Shown here in pieces: positions 1 through 45,180 of a stretch of 64,000 bases of DNA. This DNA is from Escherichia phage vB_EcoP_WFI101126. The stretch lies in sequence record NC_070991.1; one strand, given 5' to 3'. Below the pieces are notes generated by a model. The model worked only from the letters and a program-made list of their open reading frames with translations. It was not told where the DNA came from and searched no databases. Each line of letters opens with the position of its first letter. Within the stretch, counting starts at the first letter, position 1. Both the position numbers and the translations under genes were made by a program.

Positions 1-64
1 AGCCTTTCTCTCACTCTCTAAAGGGGAACTAAATAAACGGGTAGCTAATGAATAGGATGGTATA

Positions 65-101
65 CACGGGGAAATAATTACGGGGAGTAGGCACGGGGAA
101 A
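65..101. repeat. Three closely spaced copies of YACGGGGAR (65-74, 79-87, 92-101) in the non-coding left end; ACGGGGA recurs at 323-329
   Basis: Read directly from sequence; 13-14 bp spacing. Confidence 0.5.
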
Positions 102-495
102 GGTGGAACGTTGAAAAGGAAGGTAAAGGCATTGCCAATAACCCTTTTTTAAATGAGGACTCCCCCTTTTTAGGAAACACGCGGGAAGCGGCTAGCCCCA
201 CTCGGTCAAATCAGAATTTTAAACTCTTATATATAAGGTTGAAAGAGAACTTATGTGGAAAATTAAGTTAATCATTAAGCAATTCAAATGTGATCACGAG
301 TACTATCGGATACGCAAAGCTTACGGGGATGAAAGAGTTCACACCCTTTATAAGTCCACTTGGAGATGTAGTAAATGTGGCAAGCTTAAACACAGCACAT
401 GGATGGACAGGCCTTAATGGAATGGATATTCTGGTTAGTAATAGTTTTCTGTTTATTCATCTGCTTCTCTATAGCGAGATGTATCAAGTATGACT

Positions 496-610
496 AATGA
501 CATGGCCTTAATGTGATAGTGCCTTTATGACATGCCCTTTACTTCAGCGTACACGGGTTGTTGGTGTGAGGGTGCCTTTACGGGTAGGTCTTATGATGTG
601 CCCTTTATAC
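496..610. repeat. Cluster of short direct repeats TGCCYTTTAY (520-528, 533-542, 573-581, 599-608) and ATGACATG (498-505, 527-534) upstream of first plus-strand gene
   Basis: Read directly from sequence. Confidence 0.5.
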
Positions 611-632
611 TCTTATTCAGAGGAGAAGAATT

Positions 633-899
633 ATGAATTTAGTATTAGACTTTTTATCAGAGATGGTGCCTCGGTTTAGAACGGAGAGATGTGCCTTCAT
701 TAAAGAATCCTCTGATAAGTATGGAGATGGTGAGATGATGGAACTCACTTGCATCGGTCGTCTAGTTGACTTGGATGACGATGAAGATTTTGATGTTACG
801 ATGGATGTTAGCAGTTTAGGTTGGCTATTCTTCAGAACATTCGTATCGTACAAATATGAAACATTTAAAGATTACAGTAAGGGAGAGACAGATGAATAA
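633..899 (+). CDS. hypothetical acidic protein (88 aa)
   Basis: ORF track; AGGAGAAG Shine-Dalgarno 5 nt upstream of ATG 633; stop overlaps next start (ATGAATAA). Confidence 0.45.
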   Translation: MNLVLDFLSEMVPRFRTERCAFIKESSDKYGDGEMMELTCIGRLVDLDDDEDFDVTMDVSSLGWLFFRTFVSYKYETFKDYSKGETDE

Positions 900-1587
900 T
901 CAAATAATCGCAGTTAATATGGAAGGTATTTATGGAGGTAGCTTCCCTTCTGGCTCTCCTTTCCACATCAAAGCAATGGACCTTAACGAGTATAATTCAC
1001 AGCTGTGTCGCTCTGGTTGTAGCTTACAACATTTAGAGACTATGGGAAATGTTTCAGGACTGGCTGTACAAGATTTATATAGTGGAAGTATTCTTAAACC
1101 AAATATTACGGAGAAGAAAGATATGATGAGTTTAGTAGAACAATACCGTGGACTTCAAGTCGGTACTATTGGTGATAAATATGAGAACTACTACAAAGAT
1201 CGCTCAAAAGTACTTGAAGAAGTTGCACGGGCTAAGCCTTCTACTCTGGAAGTAGTTGAATACGAATCTACTAAACATGATCACCTCCCTGACTATGCTC
1301 GTGCAATGATTGAGATGATTGAAGAAGCTGAATATGAAATGCTCCATGATTACATTACCTCCAAAGATGAATGGCATCGTGATGTTCGCATCGAAGAGGA
1401 TGGTACAGAAACAATTACGTGGATTCACAAGAGTGAGCTAGTAGACGACGCACTGCGAGACTACGAAAAATTTTTGGTCGACGGCTCTATTCTTTTAGAG
1501 GAAGAGAAGGGTGCAGAACTTCCGTGGGAAGGTGAGACGATTGCTCTAGGTAAGATGTTTAACCTGTCCGTTGGTGATTGTAAGTAA
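892..1587 (+). CDS. hypothetical protein (231 aa; track ORF starts at 856 in same frame)
   Basis: ORF track 856..1587; ATG 892 preferred because GGGAG precedes it and it overlaps the upstream stop. Confidence 0.5.
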   Translation: MNNQIIAVNMEGIYGGSFPSGSPFHIKAMDLNEYNSQLCRSGCSLQHLETMGNVSGLAVQDLYSGSILKPNITEKKDMMSLVEQYRGLQVGTIGDKYENYYKDRSKVLEEVARAKPSTLEVVEYESTKHDHLPDYARAMIEMIEEAEYEMLHDYITSKDEWHRDVRIEEDGTETITWIHKSELVDDALRDYEKFLVDGSILLEEEKGAELPWEGETIALGKMFNLSVGDCK

Positions 1588-1614: not shown

Positions 1615-1643
1615 TGTTGTTGATAATGTAGAAGGAGTATAAA

Positions 1644-2117
1644 ATGTTTGGAGAAAACGGAGAACTCACGCCTGCACAGGTAGCTGAGGTTACAGGAAGA
1701 TTACCCGGAGTAACGGAAGAACTCGAAAGCCGTGGTATGAACCCAAGCAATGGGAAGTTTCAAAAGGGAAATAAATTCGGACGACCCAGAGGTAGTAGAG
1801 GTAAACTGACACAATTAATGTTGGACCGTGTTGCTGCAAGTCATTTGTCTCCTGATGAAGTGTTAATTCAAATTTACGAAGATCCTAATATTCCACCCGA
1901 TCTTAGATTCAAGGCTGCATCAAAAGTTGCAGATCTGGTATATCCTAAGGCGGCCTCTGTTGAAGTTAAGATTGAGGAAGAGAATGTAATCAACGAAGAA
2001 TCATTGAATGCACAAATCAAGGACTTCTTGACTGGAGCACTTGGTATCGACGTTATGCCTCCAGAAGAAGATAACTCTGAGGACGCTGAAAAGGGGGAGG
2101 AAGCGGACGAGAGTTAA
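1644..2117 (+). CDS. putative terminase small subunit (157 aa, acidic C-terminus)
   Basis: Position immediately upstream of large terminase; AAGGAG before ATG; no diagnostic motif. Confidence 0.4.
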   Translation: MFGENGELTPAQVAEVTGRLPGVTEELESRGMNPSNGKFQKGNKFGRPRGSRGKLTQLMLDRVAASHLSPDEVLIQIYEDPNIPPDLRFKAASKVADLVYPKAASVEVKIEEENVINEESLNAQIKDFLTGALGIDVMPPEEDNSEDAEKGEEADES

Positions 2118-2186: not shown

Positions 2187-3728
2187 ATGTCATTAGATAA
2201 ACAAATTTATGAAGCTCTAACTGGTAACAATCTTAGTGTAGAGGAAAAGAAAGCACTATTGAATATGTTGAAAGAGCGTGACCAATGGAGGAAGTATAAT
2301 AAGATTTTGTCTTTCAAGGCGTATGACTTCCAAAAGAAATTTTATGCAGCAGGATTGAAGCATCGCTTTAGATTCTTGTGTGCAGCGAACCGTGTTGGTA
2401 AATCTTACAGCGAGGCATACGAGTTTGCTTGTCATGTCACAGGTCGCTACCCAACTTGGTGGACAGGATATAAATTTAAAAGACCTATCTTAGCATGGGC
2501 AGTTGGTATTACAGGGGATTCCACAAGGAAAGTATTGCAAAAGGAATTGTTTGGTACACCTATCGGAAAGGATACAAACTTATTGGGGACAGGTGTCATT
2601 CCTCGTGATGCTATCGTCATTGACACGATAGAACGAGATGGTAACAAACTTCAAATCGTACAAATTAAACATCAAAATGAAAGAGGAGAGTTTGACGGTT
2701 TAAGTACATTAGAATTCCGTTCAACCCAACAGGGTGAACATACATTGATGGGTGCAACAGTTGACTACATTTGGTTAGACGAAGAAGATCCATACGAGTC
2801 TATGGCTATATTCGCACAGTGCGTCACACGTACACTCACAACTAAAGGTCTAGTTACAATTACAGCTACACCAGAGAACGGTTTAACTGAACTGGTAGAT
2901 AAATTTATGAAAGGCGAAGGGGATGAGAACACAGGTTCTCTATATTTCCAAAATGCTTCTTGGTGGGATGCTCATGCAGACCTAGGTGGACACATCACTG
3001 ACCAAGATATAAAAGATATGACTGAAGGTATTCCAGCGTGGCAGTTAGAGATGCGTTCGAAAGGTATGCCATTGTTAGGAAGTGGTTTGATATATGATGT
3101 ATCGGATGACACAATTAAATGTGAACCATTCGAAATTCCGGATACGTGGAAACGTGTCTGCGCAATTGATATTGGTATCGATCACCCAACTGCTGCTGTT
3201 TGGACAGCTTACGATGCAAACACGGATACTATCTATGTTTACGACTCATATAAAGAAGGTGGCTTTACTCCAGTGTATCATGCTCCAGCTATTAATGGTC
3301 GTGGTCAGTGGATTCCTGTCATCCTACCGCACGATGCGGACAATATTGAGAAAGGTAGTGGCTCATCTGTTGCTCAATTCTATAAGAATGCAGGAGTTAA
3401 CGTACAGAGTGAGACCTTCTACAACAAAATTGGAATGGATGGTAAAAAGAACTTCTTTGTAGAACCGGGAATCACAGATATCCGAGAAAGAATGATGAGT
3501 GGACGCTTTAAAATCTTTAACACAGCCGCTAACGCTAAGCTATTCGAAGAGAAAGCTAGATATCACCGTAAGGTTGGTAAGATTATTAAAGAACATGATG
3601 ACTTAATGGATGCAATGCGCTATTCAGCGTGCTCTGTTACACATCGTGGTCGCTCTAAACATGATGTTAGCTACGGAAGTGCTTCTCTGTATGAGGCAAA
3701 CGTAAGCAGATGGAATCAGAGTTACTAA
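2187..3728 (+). CDS. terminase large subunit
   Basis: 513 aa; P-loop-like AANRVGKS, acidic WLDEEDPYE (Walker B-like), C-terminal nuclease-like region with conserved Asp (CAIDIGIDHP, HDDLMDA). Confidence 0.85.
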   Translation: MSLDKQIYEALTGNNLSVEEKKALLNMLKERDQWRKYNKILSFKAYDFQKKFYAAGLKHRFRFLCAANRVGKSYSEAYEFACHVTGRYPTWWTGYKFKRPILAWAVGITGDSTRKVLQKELFGTPIGKDTNLLGTGVIPRDAIVIDTIERDGNKLQIVQIKHQNERGEFDGLSTLEFRSTQQGEHTLMGATVDYIWLDEEDPYESMAIFAQCVTRTLTTKGLVTITATPENGLTELVDKFMKGEGDENTGSLYFQNASWWDAHADLGGHITDQDIKDMTEGIPAWQLEMRSKGMPLLGSGLIYDVSDDTIKCEPFEIPDTWKRVCAIDIGIDHPTAAVWTAYDANTDTIYVYDSYKEGGFTPVYHAPAINGRGQWIPVILPHDADNIEKGSGSSVAQFYKNAGVNVQSETFYNKIGMDGKKNFFVEPGITDIRERMMSGRFKIFNTAANAKLFEEKARYHRKVGKIIKEHDDLMDAMRYSACSVTHRGRSKHDVSYGSASLYEANVSRWNQSY

Positions 3729-3733
3729 AGTAA

Positions 3734-3763
3734 GGGGGAGGTTTGTCCTCCCTTCTTTTATTT
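3734..3763 (+). terminator. terminator-like hairpin GGGAGG/CCTCCC with T-rich tail between terminase and portal
   Basis: Read directly; may act as attenuator. Confidence 0.45.
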
Positions 3764-3789
3764 AAGCTATCAACCGAGGGAGAGAATCG

Positions 3790-6033
3790 ATGGCTAAGCA
3801 AAAATATAGTGAAGAGGTGTTGGACGAATTACGTGTTGACCTTCAACGTCGTTTTAATTACGCTCAAGGCTACGTAGATATGGCTGTTAAGGGCTATGCT
3901 CGTGAAGCTTGGGAATATTTCTATGGTAACTTACCTGCACCAGTAACTGCTGGCAGCTCTAGTTGGGTAGATCGTACTGTTTGGGAATCTGTTAACGGTA
4001 CATTGCAAGATATTATTAACGTATTCTGTTCTGGTGATGAAGCAGTTACTTTCGTAGCTGACAACCAACAGGATTCTGATGCTGCTGATGTAGCAACTAA
4101 ATTAGTTAACCAAATTCTTCTGCGTGACAATCCGGGATACAACATTATCTCTTCTGCTGCACAAGAATGTCTGGTTACTCGTAACTCTTTTATCAAGTAT
4201 TATTGGGATGAACAAACTTCTACTCAAACCGAAGAGGCTGAAGGTGTACCACCGGAAGCATTGGCTGCATATGTTCAGGGATTAGAAGCTGGTGGACTCA
4301 AGAATCTGGAAATCTTCACTGAAGAAAATGAAGACGGTACAGTCGATGTTAAAGTTACTTATGAACAAACTGTTAAACGTGTGAAAGTTGAATACGTTCC
4401 TTCAGAGCAAATCTTTGTTGATGAACATGCTACCTCTTTTGCAGATGCACAATACTTCTGTCACCGTGTACGTCGTTCTAAAGAAGATCTGGTTGCTATG
4501 GGCTTCCCTAAAGATGAGATTGAAGCATTCAACGACTGGACAGACACGATGGATACCACTCAATCTACAGTTGCTTGGTCTCGTACTGACTGGCGTCAGG
4601 ATATTGATGCTGATATTGGTACAGATACCGAAGACATTGCTTCTATGGTTTGGGTTTATGAGCACTACATCCGTACTGGTGTTCTAGATAAGAATAAAGA
4701 GTCTAAACTCTATCAAGTTATTCAAGCTGGTGAGCATATCCTTCACACTGAAGAAGTAACTCATATCCCGTTTGTAACCTTCTGTCCTTATCCGATTCCG
4801 GGTTCCTTCTATGGTCAATCAGTCTATGACATTACGAAAGATATTCAGGATTTACGTACCGCGTTAGTTCGTGGTTATATTGATAACGTCAACAATGCTA
4901 ACTATGGTCGATACAAAGCTCTTGTTGGTGCATATGACCGTCGCTCTCTGCTTGATAACCGTCCCGGTGGAGTGGTTGAAATGGAACGTCAGGACGCTAT
5001 TGACCTGTTCCCATACCATAACCTACCTCAAGGTATTGACGGACTCCTAGGTATGTCTGAGGAGCTTAAAGAGACACGTACAGGTGTAACTAAACTTGGC
5101 ATGGGTATCAACCCTGATGTGTTTAAGAATGATAACGCTTATGCAACTGTAGGCTTGATGATGAATGCTGCACAGAACCGTCTCCGTATGGTATGTCGTA
5201 ACATCGCTCACAACGGTATGGTTGAATTGATGCGTGGTATTTACAACCTTATCAGAGAGAACGGTGAAGTACCTATTGAGGTACAAACCCCTCGTGGTAT
5301 GATTCAGGTTAACCCGAAACAATTACCAGCTCGTCATAATCTTCAAGTTGTTGTAGCTATCTCCCCTAACGAGAAAGCAGAACGTGCACAGAAACTGATT
5401 AGCTTGAAACAGCTGATTGCAGCAGATGCACAGTTAGCACCTCTCTTTGGTTTGGAGCAAGACCGTTACATGACTGCACAGATCTTTGAGTTGATGGGTA
5501 TTAAGGACACACATAAATACCTTCTGCCTCTGGAACAGTATCAGCCTCCAGAACCTTCTCCGATGGAAATCCTCCAGCTTGAGATGACTAAAGCACAGGT
5601 TGAGAACGTACAGGCTTCTTCTCAGAAGATGATTGCTGATGCATTCGACCAACGTGAACGTACTACATTCGAACAGCAGAAAGCTGCGGATGAATTAAGT
5701 CTGCGTCAGGAAGAGTTGCAGTTCAAGCAAGAAAATGCAGCAGATGCTATGACTCTGGAAAACCGTAAAGAAGATAACAATGCTACTCTGGAACAAGCTA
5801 AACACAAATTAGCTCTTATGCAACAGCAGGTCCGTCAGTATGAATCTGTACTGAAAGAATTGCAGATGGTTATGTCTCATCAGGTAGACCAAGAGAAGAT
5901 TGTTCAGCAATCTCGTGTTCAGGATAAAACTTTGGAACTCCAAAAGAAAGAAGCTAATGTACCTAAGAAAGAGCAACAAGCTACTCTCAAAGATTCACGG
6001 ATTCCAGGCAAACGTCTTGGAAGTAAAAACTAA
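3790..6033 (+). CDS. portal protein
   Basis: 747 aa directly downstream of large terminase; Q/E-rich coiled-coil C-terminus; call by position and size. Confidence 0.7.
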   Translation: MAKQKYSEEVLDELRVDLQRRFNYAQGYVDMAVKGYAREAWEYFYGNLPAPVTAGSSSWVDRTVWESVNGTLQDIINVFCSGDEAVTFVADNQQDSDAADVATKLVNQILLRDNPGYNIISSAAQECLVTRNSFIKYYWDEQTSTQTEEAEGVPPEALAAYVQGLEAGGLKNLEIFTEENEDGTVDVKVTYEQTVKRVKVEYVPSEQIFVDEHATSFADAQYFCHRVRRSKEDLVAMGFPKDEIEAFNDWTDTMDTTQSTVAWSRTDWRQDIDADIGTDTEDIASMVWVYEHYIRTGVLDKNKESKLYQVIQAGEHILHTEEVTHIPFVTFCPYPIPGSFYGQSVYDITKDIQDLRTALVRGYIDNVNNANYGRYKALVGAYDRRSLLDNRPGGVVEMERQDAIDLFPYHNLPQGIDGLLGMSEELKETRTGVTKLGMGINPDVFKNDNAYATVGLMMNAAQNRLRMVCRNIAHNGMVELMRGIYNLIRENGEVPIEVQTPRGMIQVNPKQLPARHNLQVVVAISPNEKAERAQKLISLKQLIAADAQLAPLFGLEQDRYMTAQIFELMGIKDTHKYLLPLEQYQPPEPSPMEILQLEMTKAQVENVQASSQKMIADAFDQRERTTFEQQKAADELSLRQEELQFKQENAADAMTLENRKEDNNATLEQAKHKLALMQQQVRQYESVLKELQMVMSHQVDQEKIVQQSRVQDKTLELQKKEANVPKKEQQATLKDSRIPGKRLGSKN

Positions 6034-39435: not shown

Positions 39436-39720
39436 TCAACCTTTCGGGAATGGCATTAAAAATTCTACAGCAGATTTGATTTCGTTATTGATTCGTGAAT
39501 CACGGTAAGAGATAAACTTACCTTTGCTGTCACGTAACATCACATGGGTTCTGGCTGTTTTGTGAGGAAGCAAAGTGATACTGGTTGGGATAGTATCAAT
39601 TCCTACAGAGAATGAATTAATAGTCTTACTTTCTACTAGCAGATAAGACCAAGTACGGGGTTTCTGCTCCGGGCGGTTGGGGTATGTATCTCTAATCTGA
39701 ACCATAGCTAACTTATTCAT
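39436..39720 (-). CDS. hypothetical protein, tandem paralog A
   Basis: Shares ARTxVxLRxxxGKFxSYxxxxxxxxxxxAxExLxPFPKG with adjacent gene. Confidence 0.5.
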   Translation of the reverse strand: MNKLAMVQIRDTYPNRPEQKPRTWSYLLVESKTINSFSVGIDTIPTSITLLPHKTARTHVMLRDSKGKFISYRDSRINNEIKSAVEFLMPFPKG

Positions 39721-44615: not shown

Positions 44616-44805
44616 TCTATTCCTTGTTAATAAACAGATTGATATGACGCTGGGTAGCAGGAACAACAATAAAAGATTTATACTGACCTTTTGCTAAGTC
44701 ATGAGCAATCTTCTTTGTCTGACCAAGACCCATCACACAGCCACTAACGATAATGGCATGTGCTTGTAATTCTTCAGGTAGGTTTAGTTTCACTCTTTGG
44801 GTTCC

Positions 44806-44991
44806 TTATAGCATACAAAGAATAATAACAAGAGGTAGTGTTATAGCAAAATGTACCAGAACAACACTACCTAGCTTGATAGCTTTAACATCCTCTTCTG
44901 CTGGGTTTTCTTTAATTGCTAAATTTCGAGCTTTATATATAACAGTACCAACTATTAACGACCACACGGCCCACACAATCAGTGAAATCAT
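44806..44991 (-). CDS. small two-TM membrane protein (61 aa)
   Basis: MISLIVWAVWSLIVG...; paralogous to 45001..45180. Confidence 0.45.
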   Translation of the reverse strand: MISLIVWAVWSLIVGTVIYKARNLAIKENPAEEDVKAIKLGSVVLVHFAITLPLVIILCML

Positions 44992-45000
44992 ATCAAATCC

Positions 45001-45180
45001 TTATGCAGTCAGGAGGTGAAGCAGGAATGGGATAACAACAGCTACGATAACCATGATAGTTGATGCTGTTTGAATCTCACCTTTCTTATCAGGAGTTTCT
45101 TCAATAAGCTTACCAGAAGCCCAATAAATACCACCACCAATAAAGATAGCCCAAATACCCCATACGATTGCTGATAACAT
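45001..45180 (-). CDS. small two-TM membrane protein (59 aa), paralog of 44806..44991
   Basis: Hand-translated MLSAIVWGIWAIFIGGGIYWA...; AAGGA Shine-Dalgarno. Confidence 0.45.
   Translation of the reverse strand: MLSAIVWGIWAIFIGGGIYWASGKLIEETPDKKGEIQTASTIMVIVAVVIPFLLHLLTA

Follow-up and report, generated by a model that had tools for sequence, protein, structure and literature searches.

The left end of a 64,000-nucleotide stretch of the genome of Escherichia phage vB_EcoP_WFI101126 (sequence record NC_070991.1; this whole stretch is referred to as the window) carries two clusters of short repeats, termed here A motifs and B units, both of which are real and far from chance. Judged by alignment with related phages, position 1 of the window is the genome's physical left end, and positions 1-193 are the known 193-bp direct terminal repeat (DTR) of the group. 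In this phiEco32-like podophage, the region represents the left half of the putative control region at the concatemer junction. We read the repeats as cis-acting signals for concatemer cutting and packaging, with the B units as putative small-terminase sites, CT|AG as the putative cut or nick site and the A motifs as possible marks of the junction. This assignment was made by sequence comparison and, in our judgement, falls a little short of probable.

The genome end and its repeats

The first 3 kb of the window showed ~96% identity to phiEco32 and its relatives (Kuravirus, Gordonclarkvirinae), and base 1 of the window aligned with base 1 of the phiEco32, SU10, YF01, IMEP8 and Paul records. 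Positions 1-193 were homologous end to end with the Kuravirus 193-bp DTR, which has been determined by experiment. The DTR is annotated at 1-193 in the YF01 and Paul records, and there is published terminus evidence for Paul as well as for SU10 and YF01. A 193-bp repeat with blunt ends is described in both the SU10 and the YF01 paper, and the latter lists DTRs of 192-193 bp in 30 phages of the group. In phiEco32, positions 77362-77554 are a second copy of its DTR at 1-193. An initial annotation of the window, made from the sequence alone, had suggested that a genome terminus might lie nearby, and this alignment of base 1 with the ends of relatives bears the suggestion out. The window covers 64 kb of a ~77-kb genome, and right-end features were read from relatives; many records of the group are circularly permuted, so that the right end is joined to the DTR in them. 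Conservation of the DTR was taken from a 17-sequence alignment covering 1-193, and the architecture was compared in 20 relatives. The DTR of the window has a GC content of 0.46 and is laid out as follows.

1-193, plus strand: left DTR copy, placed by alignment, by annotation in relatives and by the phiEco32 right end.
1-8, plus strand: invariant terminal octamer AGCCTTTC, the start of the DTR.
142-172, plus strand: direct repeat internal to the DTR, CCCTTTTTTA and CCCCCTTTTTA separated by 10 nt, kept in all relatives.

The DTRs of phiEco32, SU10 and YF01 resemble that of the window in sequence from base 1, in the 193-bp length, in the CCCTTTTTTA repeat and in the order of the genes downstream, with no difference in the DTR itself. 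The SU10 paper describes the internal repeat as two copies of CCCTTTTTTA separated by 10 nt, with a T-run length that was heterogeneous between reads. The DTR is thus an already known feature, and the A cluster at 65-100 falls inside it. The published accounts of the Kuravirus DTR that were consulted describe only the T-run repeat and a conserved block at 130-170. A literature search made without the primary phiEco32 papers (Savalia 2008, Pavlova 2012), where an earlier description is possible, found no mention of the A or B arrays, of the array at the right end, of the CT|AG boundaries or of the B unit shared across families.

The pattern YACGGGGAR, of which three copies had been reported within 65-101, matched exactly these three sites on both strands of the whole window (65-73, 79-87 and 92-100). 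Its core, ACGGGGA, had four matches in the window, all within 66-329, and the probability of such clustering by chance is ~1e-6 to 3e-7. When the class was defined as A[CT]GGG[GT]A, motifs started at 37, 66, 80, 93, 323 and 580, with ACGGGT in addition at 553, all on the plus strand. The density of the class was 8.6 per kb in 1-700 and 0.30 per kb elsewhere in the window (p = 2.5e-7). Four A motifs, all on the same strand, lie within the DTR; copy 2 starts 29 bp after copy 1.

37-43, plus strand: A copy 1, ACGGGTA within AAACGGGTAGC (entropy 0.05 bits in the 17-sequence alignment, with a single variant, at position 43).
65-100, plus strand: A copies 2-4, CACGGGGAA, TACGGGGAG and CACGGGGAA, spaced 14 and 13 bp from start to start.
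323-329, plus strand: a further ACGGGGA, found by motif scan inside gene 1, where it encodes YGD.
553-558 (ACGGGT) and 580-586 (ACGGGTA), plus strand: A-like motifs between the B units, found by motif scan.

A second A array of 2-6 copies was present in the relatives ~250-410 bp before the right DTR. Most Kuravirus genomes have three copies ~29 bp apart, as at 77013, 77042 and 77071 in phiEco32; the array has four copies in SGF2, two in Bas93 and five or six in Bas87 and SU7. The variants of the motif matched between the DTR array and the right-end array, lineage by lineage, a pattern of concerted change. Both arrays carry ACGGGGA in Kuravirus, ACGGGA forms in Bas93 and ATGGGTA(G/A) in Suseptimavirus (SU7, Bas87 and NC-B, the last with a DTR of 250 bp); LAMP, compared for its DTR array, has the same forms there as Bas93. 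The ACGGGTAG form opens each A array in most lineages. Two more copies of the 9-mer ACGGGTAGC, which opens both A arrays, were noted in phiEco32 at 71844 (minus strand) and 71968 (plus strand), outside the window; they are inverted relative to each other, 124 bp apart, and flank the start of phi32_124. A 7-bp complementarity between A copy 3 and ACTCCCC (159-165) was dropped from consideration, as it is lost in LAMP and Bas93.

The second cluster had been described as four copies of TGCCYTTTAY and two copies of the octamer ATGACATG. Only two strict matches to TGCCYTTTA were found (533-541 and 599-607); the other two copies, at 520-528 and 573-581, read TGCCTTTAY and are one base shorter. With the gap allowed, GCC(C)TTTA had seven matches in the window, five of them in 1-700 (binomial p = 3e-9), and GCC(C)TTTA or GCCTTAA was present on the plus strand at 411, 505, 521, 534, 574 and 600. 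Both octamers were present, at 497 and 527; across the whole window the octamer itself was not enriched (5 found, 3.1 expected). It forms the 5' half of a 15-16-bp unit, ATGACATG-GCC(C)TTTA, which is present in six copies in 403-607 and is designated the B unit (consensus ATGAYRTG-GCC(C)TTWA). Tandem Repeats Finder reported no repeats in 1-1000, the units being too short and diverged.

403-417, plus strand: B unit 0, which forms the last five codons of gene 1.
497-511, 512-527, 527-541, 565-580 and 592-607, plus strand: the B-unit array.
124-130, minus strand: inverted B core, GCCTTTA on that strand, inside the conserved block GTAAAGGCATTGCCAAT of the DTR (entropy 0.05 bits in the DTR alignment).

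Comparison with relatives, which had been proposed as a check on the repeats, found the DTR, the A motifs and the B array in 20 of 20 genomes (Kuravirus and Suseptimavirus). The cores of the repeats are kept while the spacers vary, and differing small open reading frames (ORFs) are inserted between B units according to lineage. An ORF at 527-679, in which the B units would encode a CPL/VPL peptide, was rejected as a gene, since relatives carry a 20-nt indel there and the frame is not conserved.

The edges of the DTR share a short sequence that may be the terminase cut site.

190-197: 8-bp palindrome GGCTAGCC, GGCT|AGCC, centred exactly on the right DTR boundary at 193|194; putative terminase cut or nick site.

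CTAGCC was found on both strands at the right DTR boundary of the window. The left boundary read CT|AGCCTTTC in 10 of 10 relatives, and the right boundary (G/C)CT|AGCCCCA in most of the 10; the exceptions were phiEco32, in which AGGCACA follows the cut, and 172-1, with CC|AGCC. Bas87 and NC-B have GAGGCT|AG at both DTR edges. CTAGCC occurs nine further times elsewhere in the window, so that the cut-site sequence alone would be unable to set the ends, and accessory recognition sites would be needed.

Distant relatives and a natural chimera

In more distant relatives, repeats were sought de novo in the long stretch of non-coding DNA upstream of the small-terminase homolog, the counterpart of the candidate small-terminase gene at 1644-2117 of the window. 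B-like arrays (TATGAC.T..CAT) were found 80-800 bp upstream of this homolog and on its strand in phage 7-11, in Cronobacter phage GAP52, in Privateer-like contigs and in contig L040, at a small-terminase identity to the window protein of only 45-51%.

7-11: TATGACCTCCCATC, 3 copies at 1301-1581; small-terminase start at 1750.
GAP52: AGTATGACCTCGCATC, 3 copies at 1492-1590; small-terminase start at 1712.
L037 and L038 (Privateer-like): TATGACATGGCATCAAC, 5-7 copies at 3203-3911; small-terminase start at ~3980.
L040: repeats of the ATGATATCCCATC type, 3 copies at 831-1062; small-terminase start at ~1128.

The string ATGAC.T..C is common to these repeat units and the B unit of the window. A pattern taken from the window only (TATGACATGSC, up to 2 mismatches) had nine matches in L038, with 3.6 expected, and eight of the nine lay within 3100-3905. 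B-like arrays thus stand upstream of small-terminase homologs in at least five lineages, which indicates that the B unit long predates the genus and keeps company with the small-terminase gene, despite the other sigma and promoter type of 7-11. Lineage-specific repeats are located upstream of the B-like arrays, TGTATGGATAG in 7-11 and ACTATGGRAT in L038. In GAP52, five perfect DnaA boxes (TTATCCACA) are present within 190 bp (443-631) of the 1.7-kb non-coding region, a count reached in 0 of 200 shuffles, which suggests a host-DnaA-dependent origin or DnaA titration in that phage.

Contigs L034-L036, with 66-67% small-terminase identity, had no A or B arrays upstream of the small-terminase gene; they carry one palindromic B-like copy downstream of it, together with other lineage-specific repeats. 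We also noted a perfect tandem array of 10-bp period in L036, a metagenomic relative with 66% small-terminase identity, at 2365-2444, ~1.5 kb upstream of the small-terminase gene. Its units, alternating ACTTTACA and ACTTGACA, resemble sigma-70 -35 elements.

Phage IME267 is a natural chimera with a recombination breakpoint inside the DTR, at position ~129, beside the inverted B core. Kuravirus-like sequence (86% to phiEco32 and SGF2) makes up its right 2 kb and positions 1-128 of its DTR, and the sequence from DTR position 129 on is 95% SU7-like. The A arrays are of the Kuravirus type at both ends, and the B array and the small-terminase candidate are of the Suseptimavirus type. This distribution indicates that the A arrays are linked in inheritance to the early-gene block of the right end, and the B units to the packaging block. 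The B array and the small terminase were inherited together, as would be expected for a small-terminase recognition site.

Proposed function and rival readings

From the identity of the terminus, the anatomy of the repeats, their conservation and their concerted variation, we infer protein binding, a pairing of motifs with proteins and a role in cutting and packaging. In the proposed mechanism, terminase would be positioned on the concatemer by short, oriented, protein-binding repeats and would cut or nick CT|AG on both sides of the DTR; the DTR would be duplicated and the unit genome packaged. The B units (403-607, with the inverted core at 124-130) would act as small-terminase recognition sites, comparable to lambda cosB or to a pac site. 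The A motifs would mark the junction, and their reader might be a different, early-expressed protein. The suggestion in the initial annotation that the repeats are protein-binding iterons gains from the comparisons made here, since the clustering, the single strand, the conservation, the concerted variants and the distant B-like arrays are all consistent with it.

The repeats had been placed ahead of the first plus-strand genes and the packaging module, which is correct in outline, as the gp4 homolog through to the large terminase follow them. The description of the region as non-coding is right only in part. A conserved 54-aa ORF that is annotated in relatives lies between the two clusters, and a possible 26-aa ORF adjoins it.

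253-417, plus strand: gene 1, encoding 54 aa with a CxH...CxxC pattern that may be a zinc ribbon; kept in both Kuravirus and Suseptimavirus (phrog_7696).
417-497, plus strand: possible 26-aa, strongly hydrophobic ORF, MEWIFWLVIVFCLFICFSIARCIKYD, with a TAATG stop/start overlap with gene 1.
633-899, plus strand: gp4 homolog.
892-1587, plus strand: gp5 homolog.
1624-1632, plus strand: TAATGTAGA, the known gp36 promoter element ahead of the small-terminase candidate, where a gp36-sigma late promoter has been published.
1644-2117, plus strand: candidate small terminase subunit, 157 aa, directly upstream of the large terminase.
2187-3728, plus strand: large terminase.

The product of 1644-2117 is the most plausible reader of the B units. 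Its two best hits in a PDB profile search were the NV1 (E = 0.002) and PaP3 (E = 0.042) small terminases, and an HHpred match to the PaP3 small terminase is reported in the YF01 paper. No above-threshold Pfam match was found for this protein. Its AlphaFold2 model had a predicted local distance difference test score of 68, and Foldseek ranked the PaP3 small terminase 12th (E = 4). Gene 1, located next to the repeats, encodes a small early protein that is a candidate for DNA binding. The 26-aa ORF sits on a ~90-bp insert with GGCCTTAATG on both sides, is present in only some relatives (IMEP8, XT32, ECBP2) and may be a small membrane-protein moron. A terminator-like hairpin, GCCTCCTTTGGGAGGC, with a T run is located at 1593-1608 and is followed by TAATGTAGA. 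Pfam and PHROGs gave no informative function for the neighbouring proteins. Some database product names look unreliable, namely "ABC transporter" for the gp5 homolog and "terminase" for a 121-aa right-end protein (phi32_125, phiEco32 44732-45097); neither protein had a Pfam match above threshold, and the names trace only to PHROG and RefSeq labels.

Several observations weigh against a role of the repeats in cutting and packaging. In Kuravirus, two genes (633-1587) lie between the B array and the small-terminase gene. The small-terminase assignment is itself weak, with a profile E of 0.002 and a fold search that gave no decisive match. The column entropy was 0.18 bits in the A cores and 0.41 bits in the rest of the DTR, a difference that is not significant alone (permutation p = 0.13). 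The AT-rich DNA (GC 0.27-0.29) beside the right-end A array of relatives is origin-like, as are the DnaA boxes in the equivalent non-coding region of GAP52. In IME267, a small terminase of the Suseptimavirus type stands beside A arrays of the Kuravirus type, and the small terminase would therefore either not read the A motifs or not distinguish their variants. To our knowledge, the function of the analogous repeats of T7 has never been established.

The strongest rival takes the A arrays for iterons, belonging either to a replication origin or to a site of end replication or priming, the two arrays flanking an AT-rich unwinding tract in the concatemer. A phage early protein with its gene near the right end would bind them, and the DTR copies would serve replication and not packaging. 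We consider this reading rather unlikely. It would account for the layout in phiEco32, where the three right-end A copies, 29 bp apart, form an island of GC 0.54 between tracts of GC 0.29 and 0.27, with the DTR and its array following. The five DnaA boxes of GAP52, near-consensus DnaA-box-like repeats in 7-11 and the inheritance of the IME267 A arrays with the right-end early-gene block, not the terminase block, point the same way, and the ends of T7 also carry origin-associated promoters, phiOL and phiOR. However, no DnaA-box cluster was found in window positions 1-700, no initiator gene was identified, and the GC skew tracks the direction of transcription, with no sign of an origin. Both the AT-rich tract and the right-end array fall beyond the window and are known from relatives only. 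An origin would also leave the B array unexplained, and, as far as we know, the analogous repeats of T7 are not its primary origin.

The repeats could instead be sites of transcription control, either operators or promoter elements for an early rightward unit (gene 1, gp4 and gp5) or signals in a leader RNA, which we regard as improbable. The SU10 authors proposed a sigma-70 promoter just after the DTR and classed genes 1-3 as early, and the block concerned is conserved.

204-237, plus strand: conserved block GGTCAAATCAGAATTTTAAACTCTTATATATAAGG, the proposed sigma-70 promoter for gene 1 in SU10 Table S2.

The B units lie in the leader between gene 1 and gp4 and contain TAATG or TTATG, loosely like the gp36 element tAATGTAtA. 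A scan of 2.3 kb for sigma-70 promoters (TTGACA-N17-TATAAT) nevertheless gave four matches against 4.8 expected, none of them on an A or B motif, and the block at 204-237 was below the consensus threshold. One-mismatch matches to the gp36 element TAATGTATA were at chance level (21 found, 19.3 expected). No clustering of A or B motifs was seen at the other early promoters of phiEco32, and the 7-11 group retains B-like units although its phage sigma factor recognises a promoter of another, bipartite type. No Rfam match was found in 1-1000 at E <= 1. Folding was no better than that of shuffled sequence, either for the DTR as single-stranded DNA (z = +1.6) or for 418-640 as RNA (z = -0.89), and suggested no structured element. 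No support was obtained for the earlier proposal of a cluster of early promoters or operators: sigma-70 matches were missing from the repeats, gp36 matches were at chance level and the motifs were absent from the other early-promoter region of phiEco32. The sequence TAATGAATA at 46-54 in the DTR (TAATGTATT in other relatives) was likewise given no weight as a gp36 promoter; it is one mismatch from tAATGTAtA, and such matches occur at chance frequency in the window.

Finally, there is little likelihood that the B array is a by-product, in which the 3' end of gene 1 was copied in tandem and has since decayed, the copies offering short homologies for the gain and loss of small accessory genes (morons): B unit 0 does coincide with the last five codons of gene 1, GGCCTTAATG does stand at each side of the ~90-bp insert and other lineages do have different small ORF inserts between B units, but this reading is contradicted by the conservation of the unit across families whose non-coding DNA is otherwise unalignable, always upstream of the small-terminase gene and on its strand, and also by the conserved cores between variable spacers and by the inverted core in one of the most conserved parts of the DTR.

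Known systems and meaning

The proposed cutting and packaging signals have their closest architectural parallel in T7, where CCTAAAG occurs three times in the 160-bp DTR (17, 41 and 60) and eight times just to the right of it (175-332, in 13-bp steps). Two more copies, 29 bp apart at 39671 and 39700, precede the right DTR, and every copy is on the same strand. The arrays were reportedly called SRL and SRR by Dunn and Studier in 1983. T7 and the phage group studied here have in common short one-strand repeats within the DTR as well as in the unique sequence to either side of the junction. The likeness is one of architecture only, as the motif sequences are unrelated (CCTAAAG in T7; AYGGGKA and GCC(C)TTTA here). 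Unlike T7, the present phage has two motif classes and not one, has a small gene between the DTR and the second array, belongs to another phage family and follows a transcription strategy based on host RNA polymerase and a phage sigma factor. The T7 concatemer junction is a known packaging substrate (Chung and Hinkle 1990).

In the lambda cosQ-cosN-cosB region and the pac sites of P22 and SPP1, where the small terminase binds repeats beside the cut, several short repeats lie on the terminase-gene side of the cut, as in the window; this is a likeness of anatomy only. A further element stands upstream of the cut and the terminase genes are nearby, again as here. The phage differs from these systems in its blunt direct-repeat ends, which are neither cohesive nor produced by headful packaging, and in needing a cut or nick at each of two positions that are separated by 193 bp. 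In Pseudomonas phage tf (LUZ24/PaP3 group), whose DTR measures 186 bp, the two boundaries in the concatemer share one palindromic core, which has been proposed as the terminase site; in this respect tf resembles the window; the small-terminase candidate of the window is, moreover, most similar to the PaP3 and NV1 small terminases. Phage tf differs from the window in its core sequence (GATATCcc as against CT|AGCC), in one 3'-protruding end and in that no repeat arrays have been reported for it. The arrays described here add to a familiar type of element, the arrays of short repeats that DTR phages carry at their ends.

A 2026 review describes the recognition and cutting of concatemers by phages with short exact terminal repeats as poorly understood. 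For this question the phage group is a clean comparative set, offering two motif classes, defined cut-site sequences, a natural chimera and a unit conserved alongside the small-terminase gene from family to family. Should the B units prove to be the site that terminase recognises, they would provide a portable packaging signal for Kuravirus-based therapeutic or transducing particles, and would help to correct the genome start coordinates of many permuted records.

A broader proposal, which we offer as a fairly doubtful one, is that a two-part junction code is common to podophages with elongated heads (C3 morphotype; Gordonclarkvirinae, Grimontviridae) and combines an ancient B unit with lineage-specific A iterons. 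The B unit (TATGAC.T..C.T) would be read by the small terminase. The A iterons would be read by an early protein, would flank the AT-rich tract and would couple the replication origin to the packaging cut sites; in GAP52 they would have been replaced by host DnaA boxes. The IME267 breakpoint, at DTR position ~129, would then mark the seam between two functional modules. If this proposal is true, the B unit would give short-DTR packaging systems other than those of T7 and T3 their first defined recognition site.

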